This document shows, piece after piece, positions 1 through 64,000 of a stretch of 64,000 bases of DNA. The stretch is from the NCBI GenBank assembly GCA_041675145.1, contig JBAYUK010000002.1, positions 88,530 to 152,529 of the forward strand, read 5' to 3'. The notes under the pieces are model-generated. The model saw only the letters and a program-made list of their open reading frames with translations, was not told the DNA's origin and did no database searches. The stretch's first letter is position 1. Each line of letters opens with the position of its first letter. The stretch comes from Patescibacteria group bacterium (GTDB lineage Bacteria; Patescibacteriota; JACPGU01). The translations under genes and the position numbers were made by a program.

Positions 1-2
1 AA

Positions 3-2498
3 GACCCTGGAGTTTCTTCTACTGAGACACTAACTCAAAGCGATAAAGAAGAAGGTATATGTAAAGAGGATGAAAAGCTAGGAGGCTTATCGTTATTCTT
101 CGGTCAAGGCGGGGTTTTCACTAATATAACTTGTTGGTTCTTATATCGTATTTTAGGGCTCAAAGATATTCTTATTGGGTGGCTAAAGCCCGAAGTAGTT
201 AAGGAGGTCTTTATAATAAAAGATGTTACTGCTGGTGGTAATGGAGTTTTGGATATTTGGAACGCCATTCGTACTATAATAAATGTTCTTTTTATTGTTG
301 CTTTTCTACTTATTGCTCTACTAAATGTACTAAGAGTCGATCTCAAGACATGGCAATTTCAAAGAATGATACCACAGTTAATATTTGCAATAATCTTAGT
401 CAACTTTAGCTTGGCTATATTTAACTTTGTTATTCTTGTATCCAACACTCTCGTCAATTATTTTTTCAGTATTCCAAAAGGACTAGATGAGCTTTTAGCT
501 ACAGGGGATAACACTGCACTAAGTGATATCTCTGGTAGTACTGTTTTTGGTGCCTTTGTTAAAACGATAACCGCGATTGTATTTGCAGGAATATTGCTAT
601 ACATGTATATCCTTATGTGGGTTCGTGTGATTGTTATTAATGTATTCTTCGGTCTTGCAGCTTTACCTTATGTAGCCAGAATTCTTCCATTCAAACAAAT
701 ACAAGAGAATGTAGGAAAGGTATGGTCTATGTTTGTAAACTGGGCATTAATGGCTCCGGTTGCTGCCATGTTCTTGTATATTGCAGGGTATGCTATTAGT
801 ACTCTTGGTAGTGCGCTTATACCTGAATCTGCTACAGGTGGAGCTATCGGCGGTACGGCTACTACAGGAGTAGGACAGTCTGTGTTGTTGCAGTCTGCAA
901 TGGCAATCACTCTTATGTATGTAGCAGCCACCCAACCACTCAAACTCGGTGGTGCAATTATGTCTCAGGCTCAAGGTATTTTGTCTGGAAAACAAGGAAT
1001 TCCAGGTACTAAGTTCAACCCAGTCAAAGCTATTAAAGAAAAGACTGGCGAGGTTGGTGCCGGTGTGAAATCTAAGTTTGCAGAGAGAACTGCAAAACTC
1101 GCCAATATGAAAGATGAAGACATAAAAGGTGGTTTTTTCACTCAGAGTTATTTAAAAGCTGCTCGCTTTGGATCTAAGGGTTCTCTAGGAGCAAAAAGAG
1201 CTGCTGGTGCTCCAGGAGAATTTAAAAAGAGTGCAGAAAAAGCTGCAGCGAACGCTAAAAAAGAATATGAGAAAAAGAGAAAGAAAGCTGGTTGGGAAAA
1301 TAAGCTACAACAGCCTTTTTGGGAGGATGATTTGAATGCAGAAAAAGACAAGATAAAATCGATTGATGCTGACTATTTAATGGATCAAGTAGAAAATGAG
1401 TTACTAGAAGAGGATGCGGCAAATCCTGGTCAAAAGAAAGCAAAGGCTCCGGATAAGATAAATAAGAAGAAGGTCGCCGCACTTATGGCGAAGATTCAAG
1501 ATGTAAACAACGGTGTTCACGGAGTAGATGCACAGAGAAGAGGTCGTGAGGTTATGGCAGATTTATCTAAACTTACTGGTGATAAATTCGCATCAAATAC
1601 TAAAACTGACGAACTAGCGAAAATGGATGGAATAATAATGGGAGGTGATAATACGAAGAGCCTTCTAGCGAGTCAGTTTCTTAATCGTTCTCGTATAGGA
1701 TTATATGGAGATACGGCAGGGGCTGGATCGGGAGCTGACCAGTTGCGCAACGATATGAACAGAATGACTATGACCGACATAGGAGGTCTACCTATATTCT
1801 CCGTTCAAGGAGCTGGACTAAGTAATATCTCTAAGATTATGGAGGAATTCGAAAACGAGAAGATAGCACAAGCAGATCAGATCATAAACCAGTTACAGAG
1901 TAAGCTAGGTGGATCGATGAGAGCAGAAGTAATGGAAGAGATTGGTAAAGGGGTTAAGAACGGAAATAGAGATAAAGTACTAAGAGACTTAAAGTCAGAT
2001 ACTTCTATTACATCAAAGTTTTCAGATAGCGAGATAGACAATATGGTAGATGGCGTATTTGGTCATGCAGATTTCGCCGACTCAACAAGAAGGTATCAAA
2101 ATATTGAAGCCTTGAATTCTAGAAGAACTCACTATGTCGAAGGTAATCAAGCGCGTAGATTCGAGAATTATGTTAATAAGTCTGGTTTTACAGAAGAACA
2201 GATTACTAACCGTATGAGTAACGAAACTAACAGGATCAATGATTTAATAAAAACCGGTGATGTTGCTGGAGCTACTAAGTTAGCACAAGAATTCTATAAG
2301 CCAGAGTTTTCGGGAAGAAATAATGTAACTCAAGAAGAACTCGAGAAGCACCTAGAGGCGACCAATAGAATCTTGGACTTACGAAGAAAGATGGCGTATG
2401 CCGGAAATGATAATAATTTAAAGAGAGAAAAACAACAGGCAGCAGCGGAGTGGAAGCGTATTAAGGGTCCAAAACCTCAAGGTAAAGCAGGAGCGTAA
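3..2498 (+). CDS. VirB6/TrbL-like polytopic membrane protein of a type IV secretion-like system; 5'-partial. The reading frame is open from the window edge; the only in-window start candidate is a TTG at 249. It has N-terminal multi-TM helices followed by a ~500 aa Lys/Glu/Ala-rich hydrophilic tail.
   Basis: ORF track (249..2498) extended by hand. The same frame has no stop codon back to nt 3 and no in-frame ATG upstream of the TTG at 249. The upstream translation (…LGGLSLFFGQGGVFTNITCWFLYRILGLKDILIGW…) looks like membrane-protein sequence. The architecture (5-6 hydrophobic helices plus a long charged tail) and the position immediately upstream of a VirB4 ATPase fit TrbL/VirB6. Confidence 0.5.
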   Translation, partial: DPGVSSTETLTQSDKEEGICKEDEKLGGLSLFFGQGGVFTNITCWFLYRILGLKDILIGWLKPEVVKEVFIIKDVTAGGNGVLDIWNAIRTIINVLFIVAFLLIALLNVLRVDLKTWQFQRMIPQLIFAIILVNFSLAIFNFVILVSNTLVNYFFSIPKGLDELLATGDNTALSDISGSTVFGAFVKTITAIVFAGILLYMYILMWVRVIVINVFFGLAALPYVARILPFKQIQENVGKVWSMFVNWALMAPVAAMFLYIAGYAISTLGSALIPESATGGAIGGTATTGVGQSVLLQSAMAITLMYVAATQPLKLGGAIMSQAQGILSGKQGIPGTKFNPVKAIKEKTGEVGAGVKSKFAERTAKLANMKDEDIKGGFFTQSYLKAARFGSKGSLGAKRAAGAPGEFKKSAEKAAANAKKEYEKKRKKAGWENKLQQPFWEDDLNAEKDKIKSIDADYLMDQVENELLEEDAANPGQKKAKAPDKINKKKVAALMAKIQDVNNGVHGVDAQRRGREVMADLSKLTGDKFASNTKTDELAKMDGIIMGGDNTKSLLASQFLNRSRIGLYGDTAGAGSGADQLRNDMNRMTMTDIGGLPIFSVQGAGLSNISKIMEEFENEKIAQADQIINQLQSKLGGSMRAEVMEEIGKGVKNGNRDKVLRDLKSDTSITSKFSDSEIDNMVDGVFGHADFADSTRRYQNIEALNSRRTHYVEGNQARRFENYVNKSGFTEEQITNRMSNETNRINDLIKTGDVAGATKLAQEFYKPEFSGRNNVTQEELEKHLEATNRILDLRRKMAYAGNDNNLKREKQQAAAEWKRIKGPKPQGKAGA

Positions 2499-2503
2499 TA
2501 TAG

Positions 2504-3142
2504 ATGCCAGACCAATATAAAATCCCACAAAATATAGATATAGAAGACAAGATACTCGGACCCTTTACGCTCCGACAGTTTCTCTATATGATAGGAGGAG
2601 GATCACTCCTTTACATTCTATTTTTGTCTTTTGGTCAAAGTAACTTTACTTTATTTGTTTTGATTGCGCTTCCAGTAGCACTACTTGTTTTTGCACTTGT
2701 TTTTATTCGAGTAAACGAACAGCCGTTTCTAGGATTTCTCCAATCGTTTATTATTTATTCTCTTGATCCTAAGATAAAGATTTGGAAGAAATCCACGCAT
2801 ATAAAAAGTATCATGGCACAAAGTGCGCAGGAAGCAACGCATGGTAGTCGTGCAATAGTGCGGCGCAGTAAAAAAGGTGCGCTCAAGTCTCGTCTCGCAC
2901 AGCTGACAACTATAATAGATACCCAGGGATACAAAACAGAAGCAGAAGACACAGATTTAGGAGATAGAATAGTTTCACCTTTTGATACAGAAACCACTCC
3001 TGACCAGTTAACAGTAGATGAATCGAATTTAGATGATGTATTTGGAGACTTAGAGCGTAGTATTGATCGTATTGCACCAGTAAAAGTAGAAGAAGAACGC
3101 GATGTAGCGCAGATGATCGGTAGTCTTCTTTCAAAAAAATAA
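2504..3142 (+). CDS. Small membrane protein (two predicted TM helices) in the T4SS-like cluster; possible VirB3-like/PrgI-like component.
   Basis: 212 aa with a hydrophobic hairpin (LLYILFLSF…LIALPVALLVFALVFI) near the N-terminus. It sits between the VirB6-like and VirB4 genes with an AGGAG RBS upstream. The functional assignment rests on context only. Confidence 0.4.
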   Translation: MPDQYKIPQNIDIEDKILGPFTLRQFLYMIGGGSLLYILFLSFGQSNFTLFVLIALPVALLVFALVFIRVNEQPFLGFLQSFIIYSLDPKIKIWKKSTHIKSIMAQSAQEATHGSRAIVRRSKKGALKSRLAQLTTIIDTQGYKTEAEDTDLGDRIVSPFDTETTPDQLTVDESNLDDVFGDLERSIDRIAPVKVEEERDVAQMIGSLLSKK

Positions 3143-3145
3143 ACA

Positions 3146-3871
3146 ATGGCAGACACAAACGAAAACAAAGAACAAAAATCAACCGTAGAGGCAGGTGCAG
3201 CACCCGCTTCAACCACACAGGGATTTCTCGATATAGATCAAATTCGAGAAGGTATTGTGATACTCAAGGATGGCGGTATGCGCATGGTCTTGTTGTGCTC
3301 TGCGGTGAACTTTGAGCTCAAGTCAGATATTGAACGGGACTCAGTCATCCTGGGGTATCAGAACTTCATCAACTCTCTAGACTTTCCAATTCAAATTCTA
3401 GTTCAATCAAGAAAGTTGGATTTATCTGGATACCTCTCTGACTTAGAGCGTCGTGGGCAGAAAGAAAGCAACGAACTACTTCAGACTCAAATTAACGACT
3501 ATGTACTCTATGTACGAGGCCTCATTGAGCTGGCTAATATTATGGAGAAGAGATTCTACGTAGTAGTGCCTCACTACCCAGCAGGATTCCAGAAAGTAGG
3601 ATTCTTAGCCCAGCTCTTTGGTAACCAAGCAACAGTGACGGTGAATAACTTTGAAGATGAGAAAAAGTCTCTGCGTCAAAAAGTACAGACAGTGGCCCAG
3701 GGATTGCAGGGTATAGGGCTGCGTGCTGCACAGCTGGATACTCAGGAACTAATTGAGTTATATTACTCGACATACAACCCAGACCAGGCAACCACACAAA
3801 AGTTAATAGACGTGACGCAACTTGAATCCGAGATTATTGCAAAATTACCAGAAGATATGGAAATAGGATAA
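3146..3871 (+). CDS. Hypothetical soluble protein co-transcribed with VirB4 (T4SS-associated).
   Basis: 241 aa ORF with no TM segments, tightly packed (4-nt gap to the upstream gene, 9-nt gap to VirB4). I recognise no family motif. Confidence 0.35.
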   Translation: MADTNENKEQKSTVEAGAAPASTTQGFLDIDQIREGIVILKDGGMRMVLLCSAVNFELKSDIERDSVILGYQNFINSLDFPIQILVQSRKLDLSGYLSDLERRGQKESNELLQTQINDYVLYVRGLIELANIMEKRFYVVVPHYPAGFQKVGFLAQLFGNQATVTVNNFEDEKKSLRQKVQTVAQGLQGIGLRAAQLDTQELIELYYSTYNPDQATTQKLIDVTQLESEIIAKLPEDMEIG

Positions 3872-3879
3872 ATCACCAC

Positions 3880-5952
3880 ATGGACAACCAAGAAACACAA
3901 AAAAAGATGGATAGTATTACGCCTCGACCAGCACAAACTCCGGTGCAGGCTATTCCAGTGGTAAGACCACAGGCTACGCCAGCTCCTACTCTAGTGCCAC
4001 AAGCGCAACCAGTACAAATGACAGCTCGAGCAGTACCACAGACAGCACCTATAGTAGCTCCAGTAGTAACACCTACTCCACTAAAGAAATCTGGTTTTTC
4101 TTTATTTGGTCCAAAGGTTTCTCCTGAACAGCAAGCTATTGCTCTTGCCGAAGAAAAAGCAAAAAAAGATCGCGAAACACGCGAGCTTGAAGCTAAGAAA
4201 ACATACGAGAAAGGACTCGCATCTATTCGTGATCTTATTGCACCATCTTCTGTACAGGTGCAGCCAAACTACTTGATGCTAAACGATCTCTATGTTCGTA
4301 CGCTTTTCATATTTAACTATCCTCGCTATATTTTTCCAAACTGGTTATCTCCGATCATTAATATTGATCAAACTATAGATATTGGTATCTTTATTTACCC
4401 AATCGACTCTCGGGGCTCTCTTGATGTACTGCGTAAGCGCTCAGGTCAAGTAGAGTCGGCTTTAAATATAGAGGCACAAAAAGGACTGGTGCGTAACCCA
4501 GAGCTTGAAACGGCTCTCGGAGATATTGAAGAGCTACGAGATAAACTCTCTCGAGGTGAAGAAAAGCTCTTCCACTCATGTTTGTATATAACACTGTATT
4601 CTAAAACACTCGATGACCTTGAGTTGCTTACCAAGAACGTTGAGTCTCAACTCGGTGGTAACTTAATTTATACCAAGAGAGCAAACTTCCAGACCAGCCA
4701 AGGGTTTCGCTCTACGCTTCCTCTCGCACAAGACTTATTGGATGTTCGTCGTAACTTCGATACCGGATCTCTTTCTACTACGTTCCCATTTACTTCAATG
4801 GACCTCACGAGTAATGAGGGAATTATGTATGGTATTAACCGACACAATAGAAGTCTTATTATCTTTGACCGATTTGAGAGCTTAGAGAACGCAAACGCAG
4901 TAGTGTTTGCGAAGTCTGGTGCTGGTAAGTCATATGCGGTAAAACTTGAAGCATTGCGCTATATGATGCTTGGAGTCGACGTTTTGATTATCGACCCAGA
5001 AAACGAGTACCAGAACTTGTGCAAAATTGTTGGCGGTAGTTATTTGAGCTTAAGTCTAAGTTCAGATCACCGCATTAACCCATTTGATATTCCACCACTT
5101 CCTGCTAACGCAAGTGCGGATATGGGAGAAGACAACTTGCGTAGTACTATCATCACTCTTAAAGGTTTAATGAATCTGTTCTTAGGTAAATTAACGCCTG
5201 AGGAAGACGGTATTATGGACCATGCCATTGCACAGACCTATACTAAAAAGGGAATTACGAACGACCCTACCACGCATACTAAAGAGCCGCCATTAATGGG
5301 AGATCTTCATAGTGTACTTTCTTCTATGGGTCCAGTCGCCGACTCACTTGCTAAAAGACTTGAAAAGTATGTTTCAGGTACTTTTTCTGGAATATTTAAC
5401 CAGCCAACTAATATCGACCTTAAAAAGGGATTTGTCGTATTTAATATTCGTGATCTTGAGTCTTCTCTTCGTCCTATTGCTATGTATATGGTACTCGACT
5501 ATATTTGGGCACGCATTCGTGCAGAGCGTCGTAAACGACTTCTCATAGTAGACGAGGCCTGGATCATGATGGAAAACGAAGATGCAGCTAAGTTTATTTA
5601 CTCAATTGCTAAGCGTGCTCGTAAGTACTACCTAGGGCTCACTACTATTACTCAGGACGTAGAAGACTTCTTGTCTTCGAAGTACGGTCGTGCAATCGTA
5701 ACAAACTCATCACTCCAGTTGCTTCTTAAGCAATCTCCAGCTTCAATTGAATCTATTGCAAAGACATTTAACCTTACCGCAGGTGAGCAATCACTACTAC
5801 TTGAATCTCGCGTAGGAGAGGGACTATTCTTCGCTGGCGCAAACCACGTTGCCATAAAGATTATTGCTTCAGAAACAGAAGACCAGATCGTGACTTCATC
5901 TCCAAAAGTCATCGCTGCCCGGGAAAAAGAGGAGCAGGAAGAAGCTGTATAA
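3880..5952 (+). CDS. virB4: VirB4/TrbE/PrgJ-family type IV secretion ATPase, with a ~110 aa Pro/Ala/Thr/Val-rich low-complexity N-terminal extension.
   Basis: Walker A 'VVFAKSGAGKSYAV' and Walker B 'RLLIVDEAWIMM' are present. The conserved Gram-positive VirB4 N-domain segment 'LYVRTLFIFNYPRYIFPNWLSPII' and the C-terminal 'LGLTTITQDVEDF' block are also present. Length is 690 aa. Confidence 0.8.
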   Translation: MDNQETQKKMDSITPRPAQTPVQAIPVVRPQATPAPTLVPQAQPVQMTARAVPQTAPIVAPVVTPTPLKKSGFSLFGPKVSPEQQAIALAEEKAKKDRETRELEAKKTYEKGLASIRDLIAPSSVQVQPNYLMLNDLYVRTLFIFNYPRYIFPNWLSPIINIDQTIDIGIFIYPIDSRGSLDVLRKRSGQVESALNIEAQKGLVRNPELETALGDIEELRDKLSRGEEKLFHSCLYITLYSKTLDDLELLTKNVESQLGGNLIYTKRANFQTSQGFRSTLPLAQDLLDVRRNFDTGSLSTTFPFTSMDLTSNEGIMYGINRHNRSLIIFDRFESLENANAVVFAKSGAGKSYAVKLEALRYMMLGVDVLIIDPENEYQNLCKIVGGSYLSLSLSSDHRINPFDIPPLPANASADMGEDNLRSTIITLKGLMNLFLGKLTPEEDGIMDHAIAQTYTKKGITNDPTTHTKEPPLMGDLHSVLSSMGPVADSLAKRLEKYVSGTFSGIFNQPTNIDLKKGFVVFNIRDLESSLRPIAMYMVLDYIWARIRAERRKRLLIVDEAWIMMENEDAAKFIYSIAKRARKYYLGLTTITQDVEDFLSSKYGRAIVTNSSLQLLLKQSPASIESIAKTFNLTAGEQSLLLESRVGEGLFFAGANHVAIKIIASETEDQIVTSSPKVIAAREKEEQEEAV

Positions 5953-6012
5953 ATATTTTAGACTTCCGATTCTTGATATGGTACTATATAGATATAGTAC
6001 TAATGAGCATGT

Positions 6013-6849
6013 ATGGCAGATCTAGAGCTTGTTGAATACCTTCGTCAGAACAAATCAAAATACTCTATCTCGGTTCTTACCCGTAGTCTTGTAGACCAAG
6101 GGGTTGAAGAAGAGGAGATTACTGAGGCACTATCAGTACTCGAACAAGAAGATCGAGAGCATGTTCGTGGTCTCATTCATGATGACGAAGGTGTGTCTAA
6201 TCACGAAGAAATTGTGGATGGTGGCGAGGTTGTTCGGAGTAGATTCGACTTCCTAGAGGATGCGAGAGCTAAGTCAGTCGTTACTAAACTAGATGGTATT
6301 TTAAAAGCTGCGCTTAAACTGATTGGTGTTAAGAAGCACGATGAGAACTCAGTTTCATCTGTTGTGTCTTATGGAGCTATTGCATTTGTTATGACAACGG
6401 TAATAGTGACCGTCTTTCAATACGGAGCAGCACAGTATGTATATCCACGAGTAGCAGAAGACGCAGGAGTTTTCGGCCGTCTTGCACTTCCTGATATATT
6501 TCTTTTATCTATTCACTTCGGTCCGTTAATTCTCTCTCTTCTGTGGGCACTTCTTCTAGGTGCGATCGGTACTTTTGTTTTTATTCGATACCTCATTCGT
6601 TTCTGGCCTTTTACGCTAGTCTCTGAGTTTACTTTAAAGCTTGGATTATTCTACGCACTTATCCATATTATCTTTGGAGTATTCTTCGGAGGACTCATTA
6701 TAAAGATTACTGGAGTGTACTTAGTAGGGTATCTGATCGTTACTATTGGTGCTCTTGGCGCCTCGTATGTAGCAGCGTTGTATTTTGTGAATTCATTACA
6801 ACAAAAACACCCACAAATCTTAAAAGACCTATTGTATAAAAAGTGGTAA
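6013..6849 (+). CDS. Membrane protein with an acidic N-terminal cytoplasmic domain and ~5 C-terminal TM helices; function unknown, possibly T4SS-associated.
   Basis: ORF track. The N-terminal 100 aa are Glu/Asp-rich and the C-terminal half is strongly hydrophobic. No motif recognised. Confidence 0.4.
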   Translation: MADLELVEYLRQNKSKYSISVLTRSLVDQGVEEEEITEALSVLEQEDREHVRGLIHDDEGVSNHEEIVDGGEVVRSRFDFLEDARAKSVVTKLDGILKAALKLIGVKKHDENSVSSVVSYGAIAFVMTTVIVTVFQYGAAQYVYPRVAEDAGVFGRLALPDIFLLSIHFGPLILSLLWALLLGAIGTFVFIRYLIRFWPFTLVSEFTLKLGLFYALIHIIFGVFFGGLIIKITGVYLVGYLIVTIGALGASYVAALYFVNSLQQKHPQILKDLLYKKW

Positions 6850-6881: not shown

Positions 6882-8234
6882 ATGGGTATTATCTCTTTAG
6901 TAAAAAACAAGGTTATACGGCCTCTGGTGCCCCGTTTTGTTTTCTCTTTGTACTACTTATCATGGGCAGCTGTCGCTGCTTTTTTGTATAGATTCCCGAG
7001 TCGTTCAATGGTGATAATAGGCGTGACAGGGACGAACGGAAAGACAAGTACGGTAAACGCTATTCACGCGGTACTACAAGACAACGGCATTCGTGCTGGC
7101 TTGATTTCTACCGCTAATTACAAGATAGGTGGTCGTGAATGGATAAACGAAACAAAGAACACCACGCTTGGCCGTTTTGGTTTACAGAAACGACTGCACG
7201 ATATGAAAAAGAGTGGATGTAAGGTGGTGGTGCTTGAAGTTTCATCAGAGGGTATAGTATCTCATCGCACTGTTGGGGTAGACTTTGATACGGTAATTTT
7301 CACGAACCTTACACCGGAGCATATAGAAGCTCACGGCTCTTTTGAAAAATATAAGGCAGCTAAGAAGAGTCTTTTTACTAACCTAAAAAAATCTCCTCGT
7401 AAAAAGATAGCAGGCATTGCTTCATCTGCACTGCGCAAGACTATAATCGCTAATATAGACGATGAACATGCGGAGGATTTTCTTAAGTCAGAAAGTGACG
7501 AGAAGTACGGTATTAGCATTACCAAGAAGAACTCGCTTTTTGCTTCTCAGGTAATGAGGGCAGAAGATATTGTCTCTTCTGATACGAGCTTGAGTGCAAC
7601 AATAATTGCAGACTCTGATGCATACAAAATACATTCTCCTCTGCTTGGTAAGATACAGATATATAATATTCTTGCTGGAGTGGCCGTTGCCCGTCTATTT
7701 GGGGTTTCCAGTGATGGGATAGAAAAGTCATATGCTCACTATAAAGGTGTAGCAGGTCGTATGGAACGAATTACCTCAAAGAAGGGGTTTGATGTAATCA
7801 TTGACTATGCAGTTACTCCCGAGGCACTTCAGACACTCTACAGTACTATTAGAGCTCTTTATTCTGGGAAGATTATTGCAGTATTTGGTTCATGTGGCGG
7901 TGGGCGTGATGTTGGTAAGCGTCGCCCCATGGGAAGAACCGTGAGTGGTTATGTGGACTACTCTATTCTAACCAACGAAGATCCGTATTTTGACGACCCG
8001 TATGACATAGTCCGTGATATTGAATTAGGCTTTATAGATAATGGAAAAGAAAAGAATAAGGACTACGAGATCCTGATAAATCGTGACCATGCTATTGAAA
8101 AAGCATTACTTATGGTTTCAGGTAAAGGTGATGTTGTGGTGGTTACAGGAAAGGGTTCTGAAACGGGGATGAATATCCAAGGGGAAGTAGTGCCATTCAA
8201 CGACCAAAAAACAGTACTCAAATATTTGAAATAG
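6882..8234 (+). CDS. Mur ligase family protein, MurE-like (UDP-N-acetylmuramoyl-tripeptide synthetase-like), lacking the usual N-terminal domain 1 and carrying an N-terminal TM helix instead.
   Basis: P-loop 'GVTGTNGKTST'. The block 'LEVSSEGIVSHRTVGVDFDTVIFTNLTPEHIEAHGSFEKYKAAK' aligns with the MurE central domain ('MEVSSHGLVQHR…FTNLSRDHLDYHG…YEAAK'). C-terminal 'TNEDPYFDDP' sits at the position of the MurE DNPR motif. Good AGGAG RBS. Confidence 0.65.
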   Translation: MGIISLVKNKVIRPLVPRFVFSLYYLSWAAVAAFLYRFPSRSMVIIGVTGTNGKTSTVNAIHAVLQDNGIRAGLISTANYKIGGREWINETKNTTLGRFGLQKRLHDMKKSGCKVVVLEVSSEGIVSHRTVGVDFDTVIFTNLTPEHIEAHGSFEKYKAAKKSLFTNLKKSPRKKIAGIASSALRKTIIANIDDEHAEDFLKSESDEKYGISITKKNSLFASQVMRAEDIVSSDTSLSATIIADSDAYKIHSPLLGKIQIYNILAGVAVARLFGVSSDGIEKSYAHYKGVAGRMERITSKKGFDVIIDYAVTPEALQTLYSTIRALYSGKIIAVFGSCGGGRDVGKRRPMGRTVSGYVDYSILTNEDPYFDDPYDIVRDIELGFIDNGKEKNKDYEILINRDHAIEKALLMVSGKGDVVVVTGKGSETGMNIQGEVVPFNDQKTVLKYLK

Positions 8235-8235
8235 T

Positions 8236-18435: not shown

Positions 18436-18453
18436 GGTGTTTTTTTTGAAAAA

Positions 18454-18527
18454 TCCTCCCGGATGGACTTGAACCATCGACCCCCACCTTATAAGGGTGG
18501 TGCTCTAACCAACTGAGCTACAGGAGG
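18454..18527 (-). tRNA. tRNA-Ile (anticodon UAU).
   Basis: The reverse complement reads CCTCCTGTAGCTCAGTTGGTTAGAGCACCACCCTTATAAGGTGGGGGTCGATGGTTCAAGTCCATCCGGGAGGA. The anticodon stem CCACC/GGTGG and loop CTTATAA give anticodon TAT. The T-loop TTCAAGT and acceptor pairing are intact. Confidence 0.75.
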
Positions 18528-18592
18528 ACAATAAAAGGAAAATAGTAATTTATCCTCCTGTTATGCTAGCAAAAAATGCTATATTTTGCAAT

Positions 18593-18976
18593 TTAGAGAG
18601 CAGAAGTTGTAGATTTGTAGGTAACTGACTTAATCCAGCCTGTTATTTCCTGCACAGAAGCCGTTGTGAGGTCCTTTTGTATGAATGAGAGTACCTCAGG
18701 GTCACTCATAGGGAGTTGGTGGCTGTTAATGGCCAGTAAAACGCCCAGAGACCCTAATGCAGTAGGGAGGTTCTGCTCAGAAAACGGTCGTTTCTTAGCA
18801 ATTGCGAAAAATAATGCCGCTGCTTTGCTGTATAAATCAGGAAACATCTCGGTGTGATGCATATACTGCACGGCCTTTTTTAGGGTCTTAAGATCTGAAA
18901 GGCCATCACGACCACCCACTTCTGAGGTGAGGCGGTTATGAATAAAGAGAATTTCTTGTGCTGATAGGTAATTCAT
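18593..18976 (-). CDS. Doc/Fic-family (death-on-curing-like) protein with a degenerate catalytic motif.
   Basis: 127 aa. 'MNYLSAQEILFIHNRLTSEVGGRDGLSDL…' aligns with phage P1 Doc. The segment 'AIAKKRPFSEQNLPTALGSLGVLLAING' aligns to Doc 'ATARGHIFNDANKRTALNSALLFLRRNG', with H→R, D→E, K→L and R→P substitutions. It lies immediately downstream of an AbrB/MazE-type small gene. Confidence 0.65.
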   Translation of the reverse strand: MNYLSAQEILFIHNRLTSEVGGRDGLSDLKTLKKAVQYMHHTEMFPDLYSKAAALFFAIAKKRPFSEQNLPTALGSLGVLLAINSHQLPMSDPEVLSFIQKDLTTASVQEITGWIKSVTYKSTTSAL

Positions 18977-28365: not shown

Positions 28366-30612
28366 ATGAAGAAGAACTTCAAGAAAAACAAAAAATCATC
28401 CTTTAAGGAAGAGCGGGATAGTAAGAAAGAAGTAGGACGCGAGCCTGGTTTTTCACTGAGTCCTGACACGAAGCGAGAGATTGCCTCTATCACCCTTATG
28501 GTGCTCGGTATCGTGTGCTTTCTCAGTCTTTTTAGTCTCTTTGGTGTAGTAGGTGGAGCAATCCACGATATATTGCGTCAAGGGTTAGGTTGGGGCTCTT
28601 ACTTGTTTGCCTTCTCTCTTGTTGGGGTAGGGTATGCTTTGTTCTTCCCTGACCGTTTTAGATTGCATCCTGCCACGTATATCGGGCTTACGGCAGTCAA
28701 TGTACTCGTACCGATGTTAATCCATGTATTTGTGAACACCGATATGTCACTCGCAACAGCAGCAGACGGTAATGCAGGTGGTTTTGTAGGGCACTTACTG
28801 GGTACTGGTCTCAAGCAATCAGTCTCTCTTACGGGAGCCCTTATTATTTTGCTCGCTTTAATCATTGTCTCAGTCCTTGTTGTGTTTAATACAAGCTTGA
28901 AGCGTATCCAGGAAACACTCGAAACTGAAGCGCTTGAGGCAGAAACAAATGCAACAGAACAAATTGGAAGACTAAAGATTAATCTTCCAAAGATTAATCT
29001 GAAAGATCTTGCTAACGCCAAGAACGCAGATAGCGATGACGATGAGAAACCTCCTGTAAAAGAAGGTATCTCACCATTCAAAAAGAAAGAAGCAGCTACT
29101 CCAAAAGAAGGAGATAAGCCAGAAAAGACAGTACAAGACCAAGACTGGAAATATCCAGCTACTAATATTTTAGATAGTTCAAAATACACCGTCGAAAGCG
29201 GTAATGTAAAAGGTAATGCAGAGATTATATCAAAGACACTTTCTCAGTTTGGAATTGGCGTAACGATGCAGGACGTAAATGTCGGTCCGACTTTTACGCA
29301 GTATACACTCAAGCCTTCAGAAGGTATGAAGTTGTCTAAGATTACGAATCTTCAAGACGACCTTGCCCTAGCCCTTGCTACTCACCCAATCCGTATTGAA
29401 GCACCGATTCCGGGTAAGTCACTTGTAGGAGTTGAAGTGCCAAATAAGAAGGTAGCTCAAGTTCGTTTGCGTGAGTTGCTAGAATCAGGAGAGTATCGTA
29501 GCTTCGCAGACCGTGGGAATCTTGTGGTTGCACTTGGTAAAGACGTATCTGGTGCGCCTGCGGTAACGGACATTTCAAAGACCCCTCACTTACTTATTGC
29601 GGGTTCTACCGGATCTGGTAAGTCGGTGTGTGTAAACACCGTACTTGTGAGCTTACTGTATCGCTATTCACCGAAAGAACTACGCCTCATTCTAGTAGAC
29701 CCAAAGCGTGTAGAAATGACGGGATATAATGGTATCGCGCATCTTCTCACTCCAGTTATTACTGATCCAGACAAAACAATTAACGCGTTGCGTTGGGCGG
29801 TAAACGAGATGGAAAACCGCTACAAGATTTTGGCAGAAAGTGGCGCGCGCGAAATTGCCGGATACAATAAAAGACTTCCTAAAGAAGAAGAGAAGATGCC
29901 GTATATTGTGATTGTTATCGACGAGTTAGCGGATGTTATGATACAGGCAGCTCAAGAGGTAGAAGGTCTTATTGTTCGTATCGCACAGATGGCTCGTGCA
30001 GTTGGTATCCACTTGATACTTGCTACTCAGCGTCCGTCGGTAAATGTTGTAACCGGACTTATTAAAGCCAATGTTCCTGCGCGTATCGCGTTTCGTGTAG
30101 CATCACAAATTGACAGTCGTACTATTATTGATGGTGTTGGCGCAGAGCGTCTGATCGGTCGTGGAGACATGTTGTACCTATCTGGGGACGGTCAAAAGCC
30201 TCGTCGTATCCAAGGAGTGTTTATTGAAGATAAAGAAATTAAAACAGTGCTAGATGTGATTCGTGAACAGCAAGAGCCACAATATAACGACGAAGTAATT
30301 AAGCCTCAGAAATCTGCCCTCGGTAGTCATAGTGGAGGGGGTGCAAACAGCGATGCTGATGATGATATGTACCAACAGGCCTACGACGAGGTAGTGCGCT
30401 CTGGAAAGGCCTCTGCGTCGTTCCTACAGCGTCGTCTGGGAATTGGATACGCTCGTGCCGCACGACTCCTGGACCTTCTAGAAGAGAACAATGTGATTGG
30501 TCCCGGTAATGGCGCTAAAGCTCGTGAAGTAATGGTTGTGTCTGGCGACTCTAACGAGATGGCGCAAAGTATTTACGAAGATGATTGGGGAGATGGATCT
30601 GATAAAGAATAA
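28366..30612 (+). CDS. ftsK: DNA translocase FtsK/SpoIIIE.
   Basis: N-terminal TM helices are present. The motor domain has Walker A 'AGSTGSGKS' and 'DELAD'. The C-terminal gamma winged-helix is 'SFLQRRLGIGYARAARLLDLLEE'. Confidence 0.9.
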   Translation: MKKNFKKNKKSSFKEERDSKKEVGREPGFSLSPDTKREIASITLMVLGIVCFLSLFSLFGVVGGAIHDILRQGLGWGSYLFAFSLVGVGYALFFPDRFRLHPATYIGLTAVNVLVPMLIHVFVNTDMSLATAADGNAGGFVGHLLGTGLKQSVSLTGALIILLALIIVSVLVVFNTSLKRIQETLETEALEAETNATEQIGRLKINLPKINLKDLANAKNADSDDDEKPPVKEGISPFKKKEAATPKEGDKPEKTVQDQDWKYPATNILDSSKYTVESGNVKGNAEIISKTLSQFGIGVTMQDVNVGPTFTQYTLKPSEGMKLSKITNLQDDLALALATHPIRIEAPIPGKSLVGVEVPNKKVAQVRLRELLESGEYRSFADRGNLVVALGKDVSGAPAVTDISKTPHLLIAGSTGSGKSVCVNTVLVSLLYRYSPKELRLILVDPKRVEMTGYNGIAHLLTPVITDPDKTINALRWAVNEMENRYKILAESGAREIAGYNKRLPKEEEKMPYIVIVIDELADVMIQAAQEVEGLIVRIAQMARAVGIHLILATQRPSVNVVTGLIKANVPARIAFRVASQIDSRTIIDGVGAERLIGRGDMLYLSGDGQKPRRIQGVFIEDKEIKTVLDVIREQQEPQYNDEVIKPQKSALGSHSGGGANSDADDDMYQQAYDEVVRSGKASASFLQRRLGIGYARAARLLDLLEENNVIGPGNGAKAREVMVVSGDSNEMAQSIYEDDWGDGSDKE

Positions 30613-35522: not shown

Positions 35523-36776
35523 ATGAAATATACCAACATACAATCTCTCTTTTTTATTGCCTTAATCCCGGTACTTATAGGGGCATTTATTCCTACAGCT
35601 AAGGCTGTTGAGTATGGTGGTGTTGGAGGAAGGCCAGCATATCCACGGTCTGACAATCCTCGTACAGACTCTATTTTCGTACATAACGCGAATCCAGGAG
35701 ATGTTATTAAAGAAGGTGTCACAGTTATTAATAACACCAACGAGTCAAAAACACTTTCTGTATACGGTGGAGACTATATCCCATCTTCAGGTGGCGGGTT
35801 TGCATGTCGTCAGTTTACTGAACAACAGACAGAGGTCGGTTCATGGATTGAACTAAGTAAAAAGGAGGTAACACTCGAGCCGAAAACAAATGAGCTTATT
35901 CCTTTTACGATTAGTGTTCCCAAAAACGCAAGTGTAGGTGAGAATGACGGATGTATCTTAATTGAGGAAAAGAAAATGAGCGCAGTGGATGACGGTGAAA
36001 AAGCAGGAGTTAGTCTTCGCTTTAGAACTGGACTGCGCGTAGTAGTTACTATCCCAGGAGACATTGTAAAAAAACTTGATATATTAAACTTCAACTCAAC
36101 TAAGAAAGGTGACAAAAATATATTGCTTTCAGCTCAGGTAAAAAATAGCGGAAATGTTTCTATTGATACCGATGTAAAGATAGTTACTCGTGATATGTTT
36201 AACCGCGAGATAGCAGATCATGGTGGTGAGTTCTCTATTCTAAGAGGGCAGACTAGTGATTATAACTTTGAACTCAAGCAGCCGTTTTGGGGAGGACTTT
36301 TCTCGGCAAACCTTTCTGCGGCGTATGACCCAAGTATCACAGTTGAGTTAGGAAAGAAGTCAGATGAAAAAAGAGTAACGCTTACTGCTAAGAAGATCGT
36401 GTTCTTTTCTCCTCCAACACCACTTGCGGCCGTTATTGAGATAGTGGTTCTATTGTTGGTACTATTTCTTCTTACTAGGGTTATTAAGAAAAAGAAACAA
36501 GACCGATGGATAGCTAATAAATGGGTGCGATATACGGTACAAAAAGGAGATACAATAAACAGCTTAGCTTCAAAACACTCTGTTTCTTGGAAGTTGATAG
36601 TAAGAGCAAACAATATGCAGCCACCGTTTGTTATGGAACAGGGGAACACTATCCGACTTCCATTGATCAAAAAGAATAGGGATGTGCTCGCTGTGCTACC
36701 AGTAAAAAAACCGACAGCTTCTAAAGTAAAAAAAGTACCAAGTAAGACAAAGTTAAAGACTAAAACAAAGAGGTAG
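35523..36776 (+). CDS. Signal-peptide protein with a ~290 aa extracytoplasmic beta-rich domain, a single C-terminal TM helix, then a LysM domain and a Lys-rich tail.
   Basis: Signal peptide 'LFFIALIPVLIGAFIPTAKA|VEYGG'. TM segment 'LAAVIEIVVLLLVLFLLT' followed by 'RVIKKKKQ'. LysM motif 'YTVQKGDTINSLASKHSVSWKLIVRANNM'. The architecture resembles the membrane-anchored partner proteins of Firmicute WxL-type surface loci, but I cannot confirm homology. Confidence 0.55.
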   Translation: MKYTNIQSLFFIALIPVLIGAFIPTAKAVEYGGVGGRPAYPRSDNPRTDSIFVHNANPGDVIKEGVTVINNTNESKTLSVYGGDYIPSSGGGFACRQFTEQQTEVGSWIELSKKEVTLEPKTNELIPFTISVPKNASVGENDGCILIEEKKMSAVDDGEKAGVSLRFRTGLRVVVTIPGDIVKKLDILNFNSTKKGDKNILLSAQVKNSGNVSIDTDVKIVTRDMFNREIADHGGEFSILRGQTSDYNFELKQPFWGGLFSANLSAAYDPSITVELGKKSDEKRVTLTAKKIVFFSPPTPLAAVIEIVVLLLVLFLLTRVIKKKKQDRWIANKWVRYTVQKGDTINSLASKHSVSWKLIVRANNMQPPFVMEQGNTIRLPLIKKNRDVLAVLPVKKPTASKVKKVPSKTKLKTKTKR

Positions 36777-36845: not shown

Positions 36846-39800
36846 ATGTATGAGATAAACAAACAAAGAAAAAGCATTTTTTCTATCGTAAAGCTACCTT
36901 CGTTGGTTGCTATTCTTTTCGTTTTAGAGATAGTACTTTCTTTCGTAGCGCAGTTCCCAAATCAACCGATTGCAGGTAGTGCACAAGCAGTTAGTTTAAC
37001 CCAGGGAGATGGGCTTGCAGTGTATGGGGTTTCTGCCAATACAACACCTCAAGTAAGAACATATACTGGAGCTACGAATGTATTTAGCTCTGCCTCTAGT
37101 ACGGTTAGCGGTAGTGCGCCACTATCTCTAGTCAACAAAACTTCGCCTACAAAACAGGAGGCAATCATTGGATATATAAACTCGAGTGGAACTTTACAAA
37201 TAGCGTGCTATAACGGAACAAGCTACACAAACGAATGGAGTGTGAGTGTAGGTGGCACTGGTACAGATCGTCGCTTTGATATTGCGTACGAAACTAGTAC
37301 TGGCGACGTTATGGTGTTGTACTCTACCAACACTGCGACTACTAACGAGTTGGCCTATCGAACTAAGTTAGGCTCTACAGGCTGCGGTGCAGCAAACTGG
37401 GCAAGTGCAACTAATCTTGACCCGGTAAGAACCTCTGGAGTTGTGCAGTGGGTGAAGATGGCATGGGATCGTCGTTCATCTTCTAATCTCATCACTGCTA
37501 TCTGGGCAGACGCCAACTCTGACCTTTCTGCGCAAGTGTGGTCTGGAACAGCTTGGAGTAACGAGCCATCAGCAGCGCTTGCAACAACGCTTGATGTTAT
37601 CTCTGCTGCCCAGGATGTGGAAGATTTTGATGTGGAGTACGAATCTTTATCTGGTGATGTAAAGGTAGTCTGGGGAGTTGCGCAGGGAAATAATAATCCT
37701 GGAGTACGAGAGTCTAATTGTACTGGAGGAATATCTAGTTGTACCTGGAGTGCAGTTGCTACACCAGCGACATTTAATGATGATGCAACTAACCTTGATC
37801 TTTCTGCTAACCCCCTAACTGACGAAATGGTATTTGCTTCAATTGGACAAGATCAACATGACCTACAGATTGGGTACTGGTCGGGTTCTGCCTGGACAAA
37901 TGATGCAAACGTAGATACTTCCTCAGATACACCACTTACAAAAACAAAAAAAGTCGCTACAGGGTGGGTGAAGACAGGGAGCACTACCAGAAGTATTATT
38001 GTTTATGCAGATGGTAACGGTACGACTACGAACCTTAGCTACTATACTGGGAATTCTGGGACATTTAGTGCGGGAACTGACTTTACTATGAGTCCAGTGC
38101 CTGGAGCTTTCCGTTCATTTGATATACAACAAGATCCGTATAGTTCGGATAGGATTTTGCTAACATATAGCGACGCAAACAACGATCTATTTGCTAAAAG
38201 ACTAGTTATAACAGCTGGCCCAACGTTTACATGGACTAACGCTGATTCTAGTTCGGCACTTGAAACTAGCCTCGGGCAAGCAGCGCCATTGGATTTTTCG
38301 TACGCTTTTTGGCGCTATGCTCCAAGGTTTAATGAAGCAGGATACCGTTGGTTTGAAAACAATAACTCAACTAACGCAGGAGTTGCTACAGCAAATCCTA
38401 GTGCAAGTGATGAGTTTGTTCGTGACATGAAAGCTGACTCTCAATATCTATACGCAGTAGGGCACGATACAAGCCCAGGTAATAACCAGTGGAGAATTGA
38501 AAAGAGATATATTACAAACTATGACTACGACACGAGTTTTGGAACAAGTGGAGTGATGGCCAACAATCCTTCATCAGGAGATGATCGAGCTCTAGAATTA
38601 GATATAGATACAACTTCCATGTATATTGCTGGGTATGATGTTACTCCAGGTAACGCTAGATGGAGAATTGAAAAAAGAAGTAAGTCTACTGGGTTTACTG
38701 ATTTTGGTTTTGGAACGCTCGGCGTTATTACGACCGATGTGAGTGGTGGCGATGACTATGCTCGCAGTATTACTGCTGACTCTAGTTATATCTACATTGC
38801 AGGAGTTGATGCAACGAGCTCAAATAATAGATGGCGGATAGAAAAAAGAAATAAGTCAAATGGGACTCTTGTCTCTGGCTTTGGTACTTCAGGTGTTGTA
38901 ACGAATAATCCAAGTGCAGGAGACGACCAGCCGTTGTCTATTGTGGTTAGTGGTAGCTATATCTATACGGCAGGTTATGATTCGACTCCTGGTAATAAGC
39001 AAATTCGTATAGAAAAAAGACTAACTAGTACTGGTGCTCTTGATACTGGGTTTGGTGTGAGTGGTGTCGTAACGAGTAACCCAGGTAGTGGAGATGATGT
39101 AATAAATAAAGTAAAAACTGATGGCACATATCTGTATGTTGCAGGATACGATTCTTCTGTTGGGGCAGCTAACCTCCAGTGGCGTTTTGAAAAAAGAAAT
39201 GTTTCAGATGGGTCTCTAGTTGGAGCATTCGGTTCATCAGGAGTTGCTACCAGTAACCCTACTAGTTCAAATGATGAGCTGTATGACTTTGACTATGATG
39301 GTACATATATATACCTCGGAGGTTCTGATGCAATCTCTGGTGGTGACTATGAATGGCGAATAGAAAAGCGATCCATATCTACAGGTAGTTTGGATGGTTC
39401 TTTTGGAATATCTGGAGTTATAACTAGTAACCCAGGTTCAGGATTAGATCGAATTCGTGCTGTAAAACTTTCTTCAACTAGTATTCTGACCGGTGGAGCT
39501 GGAACTAATTCTACAAATCTTGAATGGAGATTTGAAAAAAGATCTTCTACTGGTGGAGCACTTGCAAAGGTGTTGGCTGCACAGAATACTGCTGCAACTT
39601 TAACTACTATTAATGATACTTTTCGTTTACGACAACTCATAACAGTGACTGCAAATAATTTCCAGGCAGATCAGAGTTTTAAGTTGCAGTTTGCAACTAA
39701 GTCAGGAACTTGTGATACTGCTTTTTCTGGTGAAACATATACAGATATTACTGCTTCAACAGCCATTGCGTATTATAATAATGTAACTCCTACTGATGGT

Positions 39801-42366: not shown

Positions 42367-42370
42367 AGTT

Positions 42371-50170: not shown

Positions 50171-50183
50171 TATAATAGCTCAT

Positions 50184-51605: not shown

Positions 51606-51609
51606 GTAT

Positions 51610-53846: not shown

Positions 53847-53870
53847 GGTAGGTTACTGTAGAATACATAT

Positions 53871-61960: not shown

Positions 61961-61989
61961 TTGCTTTGCATAAAGCGCTTTGCTATAAT
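61961..61989 (+). promoter_or_regulatory. Sigma-70-like promoter (TTGCTT-17 nt-TATAAT) upstream of hup.
   Basis: Consensus-like hexamers with exact 17-nt spacer, ~50 nt upstream of the HU ATG. Confidence 0.5.
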
Positions 61990-62038
61990 TACTACAAAGA
62001 GTCCTATTAATAATATCTCGCGAGGAAGGAGAATAGTT

Positions 62039-62317
62039 ATGACAAACAAGGCACAACTCATCGAAAAAGTCGCACAATCTACCGGTCTATCGAAAAGCGT
62101 TGCAAGTATCGCTTTCAACACTATCTTTTCTTCGATCACGAAGTCACTAGCAGCTGGTGAGTCAGTTAGTATCGCAAGCTTTGGTAAATTCGAAATCCGT
62201 AAGCGAGCAGCTCGTTCTGGAGTAAATCCTCGCAAGATTCAGCAGAAGATTGAAATCCCATCTGTTACTGTTGCTCGCTTCAGAGCTGGTAAGGGTCTTA
62301 AGATGGCGGTTCGCTAA
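62039..62317 (+). CDS. hup: DNA-binding protein HU (histone-like).
   Basis: The ORF-track ORF (61961..62317) was trimmed to ATG 62039, which is preceded by an AGGAAGGAG RBS. 'MTNKAQLIEKVAQSTGLSKSVASIAFNTIF…SFGKFEIRKRAARSGVNPRKIQQKIEIPSVTVARFRAGKGLK' is canonical HU/IHF. Confidence 0.88.
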   Translation: MTNKAQLIEKVAQSTGLSKSVASIAFNTIFSSITKSLAAGESVSIASFGKFEIRKRAARSGVNPRKIQQKIEIPSVTVARFRAGKGLKMAVR

Positions 62318-63341: not shown

Positions 63342-64000
63342 ATGAAGATATCTCATGGAAGTGTTGGGTACAAAGTATCACTACTTATTATCACTGGGGT
63401 GGTAGGTATTTTAGTGGTTGGGCAAGTTCGTGCGATAGCTGACGAGTATCCAAAGAAGAATAAGGATGAGGCAATCAAACTGTCGTACGAAGTAATAGAC
63501 CTTTCTCGTTCTAATGATGAATTACGAGATGAGTTGTACCGACTTAAGATTAAAGATAATAAGTTGTCTTTTGAGCAGCAGGACAAAACAAAAGCAAGAC
63601 AAAATGCACAAGAACGGCTACTAGAATATAAGAAAAATACAGGAGTAGACCAAGTGGCAGGACCAGGAGTTGAAGTCGTTGTGAAAGGAGGACTTTTAAC
63701 TGAGGAGATGGTTGACCTTATAAATGGAATTCGAAACATTAAACCAACTGCAATAGGTATTAACGGTCGAAGGGTGATATATAAGTCATATGTAATTGTG
63801 GATCAAGATCAGCTTGAGTTTGATAACAAGAAATACTCTTTTCCTGTTACTATTCAGGTCATAGGAAATGTAGAGGATATAAAGAAGTCACTTGAGAGAA
63901 GTGGAGGATTACTTGATATCCTAAAGAAGAACTCATTTGGGAAGGCGGACTTCAGCCTAGCAACAAAAGATTCAATTATTCTTCCTCCAACAGATCAAAA
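63342..64000 (+). CDS. Second DUF881-family protein, 3'-partial (runs off the window).
   Basis: Hand-translated from ATG 63342: MKISHGSVGYKVSLLIITGVVGILVVGQVRAIADEY…VAGPGVEVVVKGG…EEMVDLINGIRNIKPTAIGINGRRV…. It has the same TM-plus-DUF881 blocks as the preceding gene and is open to the window end. It supersedes the antisense ORF-track call 63353..63739. Confidence 0.6.
   Translation, partial: MKISHGSVGYKVSLLIITGVVGILVVGQVRAIADEYPKKNKDEAIKLSYEVIDLSRSNDELRDELYRLKIKDNKLSFEQQDKTKARQNAQERLLEYKKNTGVDQVAGPGVEVVVKGGLLTEEMVDLINGIRNIKPTAIGINGRRVIYKSYVIVDQDQLEFDNKKYSFPVTIQVIGNVEDIKKSLERSGGLLDILKKNSFGKADFSLATKDSIILPPTDQ

Follow-up and report, generated by a model that had tools for sequence, protein, structure and literature searches.

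Patescibacteria, the Candidate Phyla Radiation (CPR), carry a type IV secretion system (T4SS) that is already known: it was described in 2023 and 2025 and has been catalogued in thousands of CPR genomes. Transposon sequencing (Tn-seq) identified a cluster that is essential for the growth of Southlakia epibionticum on its host, and this cluster has no recognizable coupling and relaxase proteins (Wang et al., 2023, PMC10633639). A monophyletic clade of Patescibacteria VirB4 proteins, related to the MPF-FATA class, was then delineated, and VirB4, TrsD, PrgI/VirB3, VirB6 and VirB2-like pilins were found to be widespread in Patescibacteria, where they are chromosomal and mostly not accompanied by a relaxase (Quinonero-Coronel et al., 2025, PMC12102498). 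In the same work TrsD outnumbered every other accessory component; it has no assigned function and is a remote homologue of the VirB4 N-terminus (PMC12102498), and the Patescibacteria T4SS has been summarized in a 2025 review (PMC12857230). Here we describe a locus of this kind that opens a stretch of 64,000 nucleotides (nt) of a Patescibacteria group bacterium (assembly GCA_041675145.1, contig JBAYUK010000002.1, positions 88,530 to 152,529), hereafter called the window.

Four genes of the window, which encode a VirB6-like protein, a PrgI/VirB3-like protein, a TrsD-like protein and a VirB4 ATPase (Table 1), are the inner-membrane core of a Patescibacteria (CPR) T4SS, and the region is very probably the cytoplasmic-membrane core of a chromosomal system descended from the conjugation machinery of monoderms (MPF-FATA class). 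The case is built on the identities of these four components, the split of VirB4 into two genes, the conservation of the gene order across CPR genomes and the chromosomal, non-mobile context. An earlier description of this DNA, made without database searches (the sequence-only reading), had reported five co-directional, tightly packed genes, and this observation is confirmed: the list of open reading frames (ORFs) and the translation agree with it, all five lie on the + strand, and the gaps between them are, in order, 5, 3, 8 and 60 nt. That the five genes form one module is borne out for the four that make up the T4SS core and not shown for the fifth, p5, an orphan membrane protein present in three close relatives only and with no profile link to any family of the T4SS neighborhood. 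The first ORF is open at the 5' edge of the window and corresponds to the last 831 residues of a protein of 1161 amino acids (aa). The proposal of a minimal apparatus of the VirB4/VirB6 type, as reported in CPR/Saccharibacteria and akin to the conjugative systems of Gram-positive bacteria, is supported by the evidence given below.

Table 1. Features of the T4SS locus, with positions counted from the first letter of the window.
Feature	Position	Strand	Basis or remark
VirB6/TrbL-like polytopic membrane core, first protein	3..1052	+	residues 331-680 of the 1161-aa protein
C-terminal tail of the VirB6-like protein, 481 aa, Lys/Ala/Gly/Glu-rich	1053..2498	+	composition
PrgI/VirB3-like small membrane protein, 212 aa	2504..3142	+	Pfam PF12666
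TrsD/TraC-like protein, 241 aa, detached VirB4 N-terminal domain	3146..3871	+	NCBIfam, PF26593, fold match
VirB4 ATPase without N-terminal domain, 690 aa	3880..5952	+	NCBIfam CD1110, 4AG5, Walker motifs
Orphan membrane protein p5, 278 aa	6013..6849	+	no family; position only

The closest described system is the T4SS of the Patescibacteria clade itself (PMC12102498), represented by SEML1_0006-0019 of Ca. Southlakia epibionticum ML1 (PMC10633639), with which the window shares the set of VirB6, PrgI/VirB3, TrsD and VirB4. As in that system, the genes are chromosomal, no relaxase or coupling protein lies nearby, and VirB4 is about 50% identical across CPR classes. The differences lie in the surroundings: the ML1 cluster has an array of VirB2-like pilins and genes for peptidase and lysozyme next to virB4, whereas the window has neither, and, unlike in the systems described, there is no dnaA or dnaN near the locus. 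The clade to which the window belongs adds, for its part, a variable Pro/Ala-rich N-terminus of VirB4 and the orphan membrane protein that follows it.

The VirB4 ATPase was recognized by the NCBIfam model 'VirB4-like conjugal transfer ATPase, CD1110 family' with a score above the cutoff (E 1.8e-114, 383.6 bits against 325), which bears out the assignment made by the sequence-only reading. The protein also matches Pfam P-loop_TraG (E 1.2e-27) and, among proteins of known structure, the C-terminal domain of VirB4 in PDB entry 4AG5 (E 8.8e-50) and TrwK (E 8.8e-6), and both of its nucleotide-binding motifs are intact, Walker A as SGAGKS (residues 346-351, nt 4915-4932) and Walker B as LLIVDEAW (residues 554-561, nt 5539-5562). 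The alignment places residues 99-659 on positions 171-734 of the 752 of the CD1110 model, and because it begins only at residue 99 and model position 171, the protein lacks the usual N-terminal domain. Its first residues, up to about residue 70 (nt 3880-4092), form a Pro/Ala/Gln-rich extension that varies even among the closest relatives, and conservation among these begins at GFSLFGPK (residue 72). The Pro/Ala-rich N-terminus of about 110 aa that had been reported is right in composition (P 16%, A 13% and Q 11% in residues 1-100) and too long in extent, as the low-complexity part covers only about 70 residues.

The domain that VirB4 lacks is encoded directly upstream by the gene for the TrsD-like protein, so that VirB4 is divided between two genes at this locus and the TrsD-like protein is its detached N-terminal domain. 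This conclusion follows from three observations, namely that the two proteins cover VirB4 models in a complementary, non-overlapping way, that both are fused in a related locus, and that the predicted fold of the smaller one matches TrwK. With the Mbov_0397 VirB4 model, the TrsD-like protein aligns at positions 128-284 of 894 (E 7.9e-8) and the VirB4 ORF at 292-892; with the CD1110 model, the TrsD-like protein aligns at positions 10-100 of 752. Apart from the TrsD/TraD family NF041427 (E 1.3e-3), its NCBIfam matches are confined to N-terminal positions of VirB4 models, and its homologues carry the precomputed Pfam assignment PF26593 (TraC-like) and the NCBI name 'TraC family protein'. In locus L037 the two are fused in a single ORF of 873 aa, on which the TrsD-like protein aligns at 71-279 and VirB4 at 266-864. 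An AlphaFold2 model of the TrsD-like protein, built from 61 sequences, reached a predicted local distance difference test score (pLDDT) of 81, and the 14 top-ranking structures that it matches in the PDB are without exception TrwK/VirB4 chains of plasmid R388 (E 3.6e-4 to 5.6e-3), after which the E-values are 0.15 or worse; a profile of the TrsD family found no match in the PDB at the level of sequence.

The sequence-only reading had described this 241-aa protein as soluble, in accordance with the absence of any predicted transmembrane (TM) segment, and had considered a VirB8-like fold for it. VirB8 proteins are built from one N-terminal TM helix and an NTF2-like outer domain. The VirB8 candidacy is rejected, given that the protein has no TM segment, that its best folds are VirB4 chains and that VirB8 appears in none of the 50 matches listed.

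The gene before it encodes what its sequence identifies as a membrane protein of the PrgI/VirB3 family: residues 6-90 match Pfam PrgI PF12666 above the cutoff (E 7.4e-11, 42.9 bits against 27), a match that, like that of VirB4 to CD1110, chance cannot account for, so that the family search proposed for this protein gave a positive answer. The two TM segments that had been noticed correspond to two hydrophobic helices (approximately residues 26-68), after which comes an acidic C-terminal part of about 120 aa. Homologues were found with jackhmmer in 71 CPR ORFs, nearly always directly upstream of the gene for the TrsD-like protein; no PDB match was found at the level of sequence.

The breadth of this arrangement was evaluated with a VirB4 scan of one genome per species, which returned 80 loci. 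These were taken as metagenome-assembled genomes of CPR/Patescibacteria by record title or gene content, including several titled 'uncultured Gammaproteobacteria', which were taken as mislabelled bins. The VirB4 of the window is 46-77% identical to those of the 80 loci (about 50% for most), and the order PrgI, TrsD, VirB4 is found in nearly all of them (approximately 75). In 74 loci TrsD and VirB4 each have an ORF of their own, and the commonest spacing between the two is a 4-nt overlap, typical of translational coupling; the split is thus of ancestral origin rather than the product of a sequencing frameshift. An iterative search placed a VirB6-like gene within 10 kb upstream of VirB4 in 44 of the CPR loci.

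Other observations concern the Microgenomatia. Homologues of VirB6 have been reported to be scarce in this group (PMC12102498). Members of the family of the VirB6-like core were found in many Daviesbacteria/Microgenomatia loci (L060, L063, L067-L070, L078-L080 and others), 6-10 kb upstream of VirB4. In loci of the Microgenomatia type (L011, L013, L055-L081 and others) VirB4 is directly followed by a 39-member family of large multi-TM proteins (372-1241 aa), and these by one-TM proteins of about 150 aa, maybe pilins; hhalign connects neither family with the VirB6-like core or with p5.

The first protein of the locus is identified indirectly. Its complete sequence comes from L001, an identical contig of a public sequencing run that extends 6.5 kb beyond the VirB6-like gene. 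It consists of an N-terminal membrane anchor, an outer domain of about 330 aa, a polytopic core and the tail, and the anchor and the Cys-containing outer domain are encoded upstream of the window; the outer region has 10 cysteines within the first 400 residues. A conserved motif of the core, W-x3-R-x3-N, begins at nt 258. An exhaustive HMMER search with the TM core found 2274 cluster representatives at E<=1e-3, and among the matches listed most are proteins of 600-1400 aa with the core in the middle, which implies that long tails are usual in the family. Pfam TrbL/VirB6 (PF04610) is matched by 15 of the 59 homologues sampled. In the best case, P0033, the TrbL match (E 1.4e-7, 32 bits, cutoff 25.9) spans residues 145-318 and falls within the stretch 99-347 that aligns with the VirB6-like core. 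The AlphaFold2 model of the core (pLDDT 82, predicted template-modeling score, pTM, 0.75) has as its top three PDB matches TrwI/VirB6 of plasmid R388 in every case (E 0.07-0.09, probability 0.97-1.0), and the fourth is DotA (E 1.2).

The remainder of the protein is particular to its lineage. The tail, reported earlier as Lys/Glu/Ala-rich and some 500 aa long, was measured at 481 aa and contains K 11%, A 11%, G 9% and E 8%. Neither the tail nor the outer N-terminal domain has a Pfam match even at E<=10, nor did jackhmmer find a homologue of them in the other 80 CPR loci; the tail is presumably cytoplasmic and lineage-specific. A word-indexed homology search with the full protein gave almost no matches, maybe because the shared words are dominated by the low-complexity tail, and the family profile retrieved from the PDB sequences only low-complexity noise from designed helical proteins.

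Several points weigh against the interpretation of the locus as a T4SS core of the Patescibacteria clade. The VirB6-like protein itself gave nothing above threshold in Pfam or NCBIfam, and the Foldseek matches between its core and TrwI are weak, both in the E-values given above and in their TM-scores (0.4-0.5). The assignment is indirect for these two reasons, and the first protein is accepted as VirB6-like on that footing, from the TrbL matches in its homologues and the resemblance of its modeled fold to TrwI; the family search suggested for this ORF gave nothing with the protein itself and TrbL matches in part of its sampled homologues. A second difficulty is that a VirB2-like pilin, a VirB1-like hydrolase and a VirB8-like protein were not found in the window, so only part of an apparatus is visible, and any remaining components of the T4SS would be encoded elsewhere in the genome. 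Pfam and NCBIfam scans of the 64 kb, which covered the non-overlapping gene-like ORFs of at least 100 aa except 61961..62317 (118 aa) and the open frame 63342..63998, detected no relaxase, coupling protein, integrase, VirB8, VirB1 or pilin array and returned housekeeping families, unrelated families or nothing; the sequence-only reading was right that the window shows no relaxase, coupling protein or pilin. The short ORFs between the main ones, which lie outside the family-library scans, form no small-gene array, and two of them resemble, by eye, ribosomal proteins S15 and S21. Finally, the placement in the Patescibacteria VirB4 clade is suggested by levels of identity, about 50% to CPR proteins against at most 38% to the best plasmid VirB4s.

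Three systems outside the CPR offer comparisons. Staphylococcal plasmids pGO1 and pSK41, which belong to MPF-FATA and have a separate TrsD, likewise carry a small homologue of the VirB4 N-terminus directly upstream of a VirB4-type ATPase. The ATPase in question, TrsE, is a VirB4 homologue. These plasmids are conjugative and have a relaxase and a coupling protein, whereas the locus of the window has neither; on the other hand, the pGO1 subclass has no recognizable VirB6 (PMC12102498), and a VirB6-like protein is present here.

A second relative is the megaplasmid NZ_CP062975 of Pontibacillus sp., which has the same three-gene order, with a VirB4 35% identical and a TrsD-like protein 30% identical to those of the window. 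Profiles derived from CPR sequences match its proteins of 116, 274 and 621 aa with E-values of 9e-12, 4e-52 and 3e-176, respectively. The presence of the trio on Bacillota megaplasmids fits the monoderm origin proposed for the Patescibacteria T4SS. The cluster of this plasmid, which is typed as non-mobilizable, occupies positions 7516-17069 (L082) and comprises, in order, a pilin-like gene, a 780-aa protein, the PrgI-like and TrsD-like proteins, a CD1110 VirB4 and a 1051-aa protein of the DD-metalloendopeptidase family; flagellar genes adjoin it. Compared with the window, it adds the pilin-like gene (Mbov_0395 family) and the peptidoglycan metalloendopeptidase, and the 780-aa upstream protein was not detected by the CPR VirB6-like profile.

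The third comparison is with the inner-membrane Trw complex of R388 (TrwM/VirB3, TrwK/VirB4 and TrwI/VirB6; PDB 7O3V, 7O41, 8RTB and 8RTD), in which TrwI is the best structural match of the VirB6-like core and TrwK that of the TrsD-like protein. This is a conjugative system of diderms with VirB7/9/10, VirB8, VirB5, VirB2, VirB11 and VirD4, its VirB4 is a single polypeptide, and its sequence identity to the proteins of the window is only 11-14%.

The fifth gene is linked to the system by its position only. Its product, p5, consists of a conserved helical N-terminal module of about 45 aa, an acidic linker and 4-5 TM segments, in agreement with the acidic N-terminal part of about 110 aa and the 4-5 hydrophobic segments described by the sequence-only reading. 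Against Pfam and NCBIfam it gave nothing above threshold, with weak winged-helix or RecX-like hints at residues 7-50, and a word-indexed search of 5.8 billion proteins returned only p5 itself. Homologues with 28-35% identity were found only in loci L002-L004, in the same slot between VirB4 and MurE. Three other relationships were tried and rejected, each with an hhalign probability below 1%: to the VirB6-like core, as a remote relative, to the large proteins that follow virB4 in Microgenomatia, and to the small one-TM proteins of the same loci.

It has been considered that all five genes could be one functional unit in which p5 would be a lineage-specific subunit of the T4SS, for example a stand-in for the missing VirB8. 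In four related genomes the gene directly follows VirB4 and shares its orientation, separated by 60 nt from the gene before and by 32 nt from the gene after; VirB4 and MurE have no terminator-like site between them; and p5 evolves rapidly, as VirB6 does (28-35% identity, against 67-77% for VirB4). However, p5 is not homologous to any T4SS family, profile comparison does not link it to what follows VirB4 in other CPR lineages, it is not found in the other 77 loci, and its small cytoplasmic helical module with 4-5 TM segments does not resemble the VirB8 build given above. Moreover, murE and polA are just as close to the gene, and co-transcription with them may be all there is to its position. 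A role as a T4SS subunit is conceivable and unlikely, and membership of p5 in the system, for which its position speaks, is unproven.

With respect to how the apparatus would work, its assembly, topology and substrate are matters that we infer from R388 and from the T4SSs of Gram-positive bacteria, while its essentiality for epibiotic growth is taken from the literature. By analogy with those systems, hexamers of the VirB4 ATPase would act as the cytoplasmic motor, and the TrsD-like protein would supply in trans the N-terminal domain that VirB4 is missing. The PrgI/VirB3-like protein would tether the VirB4/TrsD motor to the membrane, where the VirB6-like protein may constitute the channel or platform, its outer domain and long tail being lineage-specific additions. 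The hydrolysis of ATP would then drive the assembly of a pilus and/or the passage of macromolecules at the contact between epibiont and host. Because there is no relaxase and no coupling protein in cis, DNA conjugation is most likely not what this T4SS does; more probably, if the analogy holds, it powers pilus assembly and/or macromolecule transfer at the epibiont-host contact. It may export effectors or import host material.

The import side of this question has been taken further in the idea of a pure uptake machine, which would bring in host DNA, RNA or other macromolecules, in the manner of Helicobacter ComB or archaeal Ced, and export nothing. CPR bacteria lack nucleotide biosynthesis, and neither the relaxase nor the coupling protein that DNA export would call for is present. 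A 2026 preprint reports that a cultivated member acquires host RNA and has tubular structures, maybe T4SS pili, and links the monophyletic VirB4 to macromolecule transfer (10.64898/2026.06.21.733656). VirB4 also has weak P-loop matches to CedB and CedD, but these score 35.2 bits against a cutoff of 700 and 20.9 against 600, respectively, and both cover only the shared P-loop region. In S. epibionticum, furthermore, the loss of comEC abolishes competence and leaves viability intact, whereas the T4SS is essential (PMC12857230), so that the essential role of the T4SS is not natural transformation. An apparatus devoted to uptake is for now an unlikely reading. More doubtful still is a stronger version of it, according to which the pared-down core (VirB6, VirB3 and the two-piece VirB4), wired into the murE-polA operon together with p5, would feed the cell on host RNA, DNA or metabolites, taken in through this conduit with neither coupling protein nor pilin in cis, while the substrate would be handled by p5 and the 480-aa tail of VirB6.

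The preferred interpretation, that of a chromosomal T4SS core, leads to the question of the neighborhood. Downstream of p5 are the genes for MurE, PolA, HolA, FemX, TsaD, ValS and a QueE-like radical-SAM protein (7-carboxy-7-deazaguanine synthase-like), followed by PNPase, RNase J, pyrophosphatase, FtsK, RecA, RecX, pyruvate kinase, DnaG and RpoD, and, beyond RpoD, by UppP, TruB, a polysaccharide cluster, YbeY and RNase Y. The FtsK (28366..30612) has the canonical 4TM, alpha and gamma domains. In the 6.5 kb upstream of the VirB6-like gene, known from L001, are the genes for a GGDEF cyclase, a membrane protein with a beta-propeller and a large envelope protein of 1445 aa; a relaxase, a coupling protein, an integrase and a pilin array all went undetected there. 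A strong hairpin with a 10-bp stem (L001 6470-6493), which would be a terminator on both strands, lies between the GGDEF gene and the VirB6-like gene, and no comparable site was found between VirB4, p5 and murE. The GC content of the T4SS genes is the same as that of the rest of the window. The order GGDEF, VirB6, PrgI, TrsD, VirB4, p5, MurE, PolA is kept in L004, and because it is kept there at about 60% identity of MurE and PolA, the locus is a stable chromosomal one and not the end of a mobile element.

Some of the upstream genes deserve a mention of their own. The GGDEF diguanylate cyclase directly upstream of the VirB6-like gene (L001 5615-6445, + strand) has a counterpart in L004 (4360-5163) that is 58% identical. 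L004 also encodes, 3 kb upstream of VirB6 and on the opposite strand (1074-2456), a 460-aa protein that combines an SLT transglycosylase with NlpC/P60; the VirB1 of monoderms has a two-domain build, lytic transglycosylase plus cysteine peptidase (PMC12102498), with which this protein agrees. The equivalent place in L001 (3-3500, - strand) is occupied by the 1445-aa protein, which is membrane-anchored, has an SxHxxGxAxD-like motif and gave a sub-threshold match to Peptidase_M15_4 (E 0.017), a hint that makes it a tentative candidate for a VirB1 analogue.

This context also disposes of the alternative raised by the sequence-only reading, in which a larger conjugative element would end, on its 3' side, with these genes, since no relaxase, VirD4 or integrase was detected in the 6.5 kb upstream and chromosomal synteny is kept. 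In its general form, the 3' end or decayed remnant of a recently acquired integrative and conjugative element or plasmid of Gram-positive type, with relaxase, coupling protein and integrase outside the window, would account for the homology of the components to MPF-FATA conjugation proteins, for the PrgI-like, TrsD-like, VirB4 order shared with the Bacillota megaplasmid NZ_CP062975 and for a VirB4 above the cutoff of a 'conjugal transfer ATPase' model (CD1110), but it is very improbable, given that relaxase, type IV coupling protein and integrase went undetected in 6.5 kb upstream plus 58 kb downstream, that there is no compositional break and the nearest tRNA gene is 11 kb away, that synteny persists in relatives with housekeeping genes of about 60% identity, that VirB4 is about 50% identical across many CPR classes and at most 38% identical to plasmid VirB4s, and that a relaxase lies near virB4 in only 15 of approximately 2,470 cases (PMC12102498).

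The rest of the window contains other features that may be recorded briefly. Bacteria usually read AUA with a lysidine-modified CAU tRNA, and an isoacceptor with the anticodon UAU is uncommon; the window has a tRNA-Ile of this second kind (18453-18528, - strand), adjoining two tRNA genes with CAU anticodons (17772-17845 and 17868-17941, - strand). Between this tRNA cluster and an unannotated ORF of 245 aa lies the gene for a 127-aa protein of the Fic/DOC family (18593-18976, - strand). Positions 36846-43249 (+ strand) encode a 1248-aa orphan protein and then three proteins of about 290-300 aa, two of them with weak dockerin and cohesin matches, and a LysM/WxL-interacting protein (35523-36776) is encoded directly upstream of the orphan; in S. 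epibionticum a protein with a dockerin domain is listed with the essential proteins of the envelope (Wang et al., 2023, PMC10633639). The polysaccharide cluster (48845-57576, + strand), with a lower GC content (0.33-0.38), comprises a flippase, three GT4 glycosyltransferases, two Wzy_C/O-antigen-ligase-like proteins and a 441-aa orphan.

To what has been described for this system, the present locus makes three additions. The TrsD protein and the short VirB4 are best read as one split gene, given their complementary coverage of VirB4 models and the existence of a fused form; homologues of the VirB6-like core are detectable by iterative search upstream of virB4 in loci of the Microgenomatia type; and a clade-specific membrane protein is found between virB4 and murE. 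The system to which these additions pertain, the T4SS of Patescibacteria, is one of few machines on which the epibiotic life of these ultra-small bacteria has been shown to depend.

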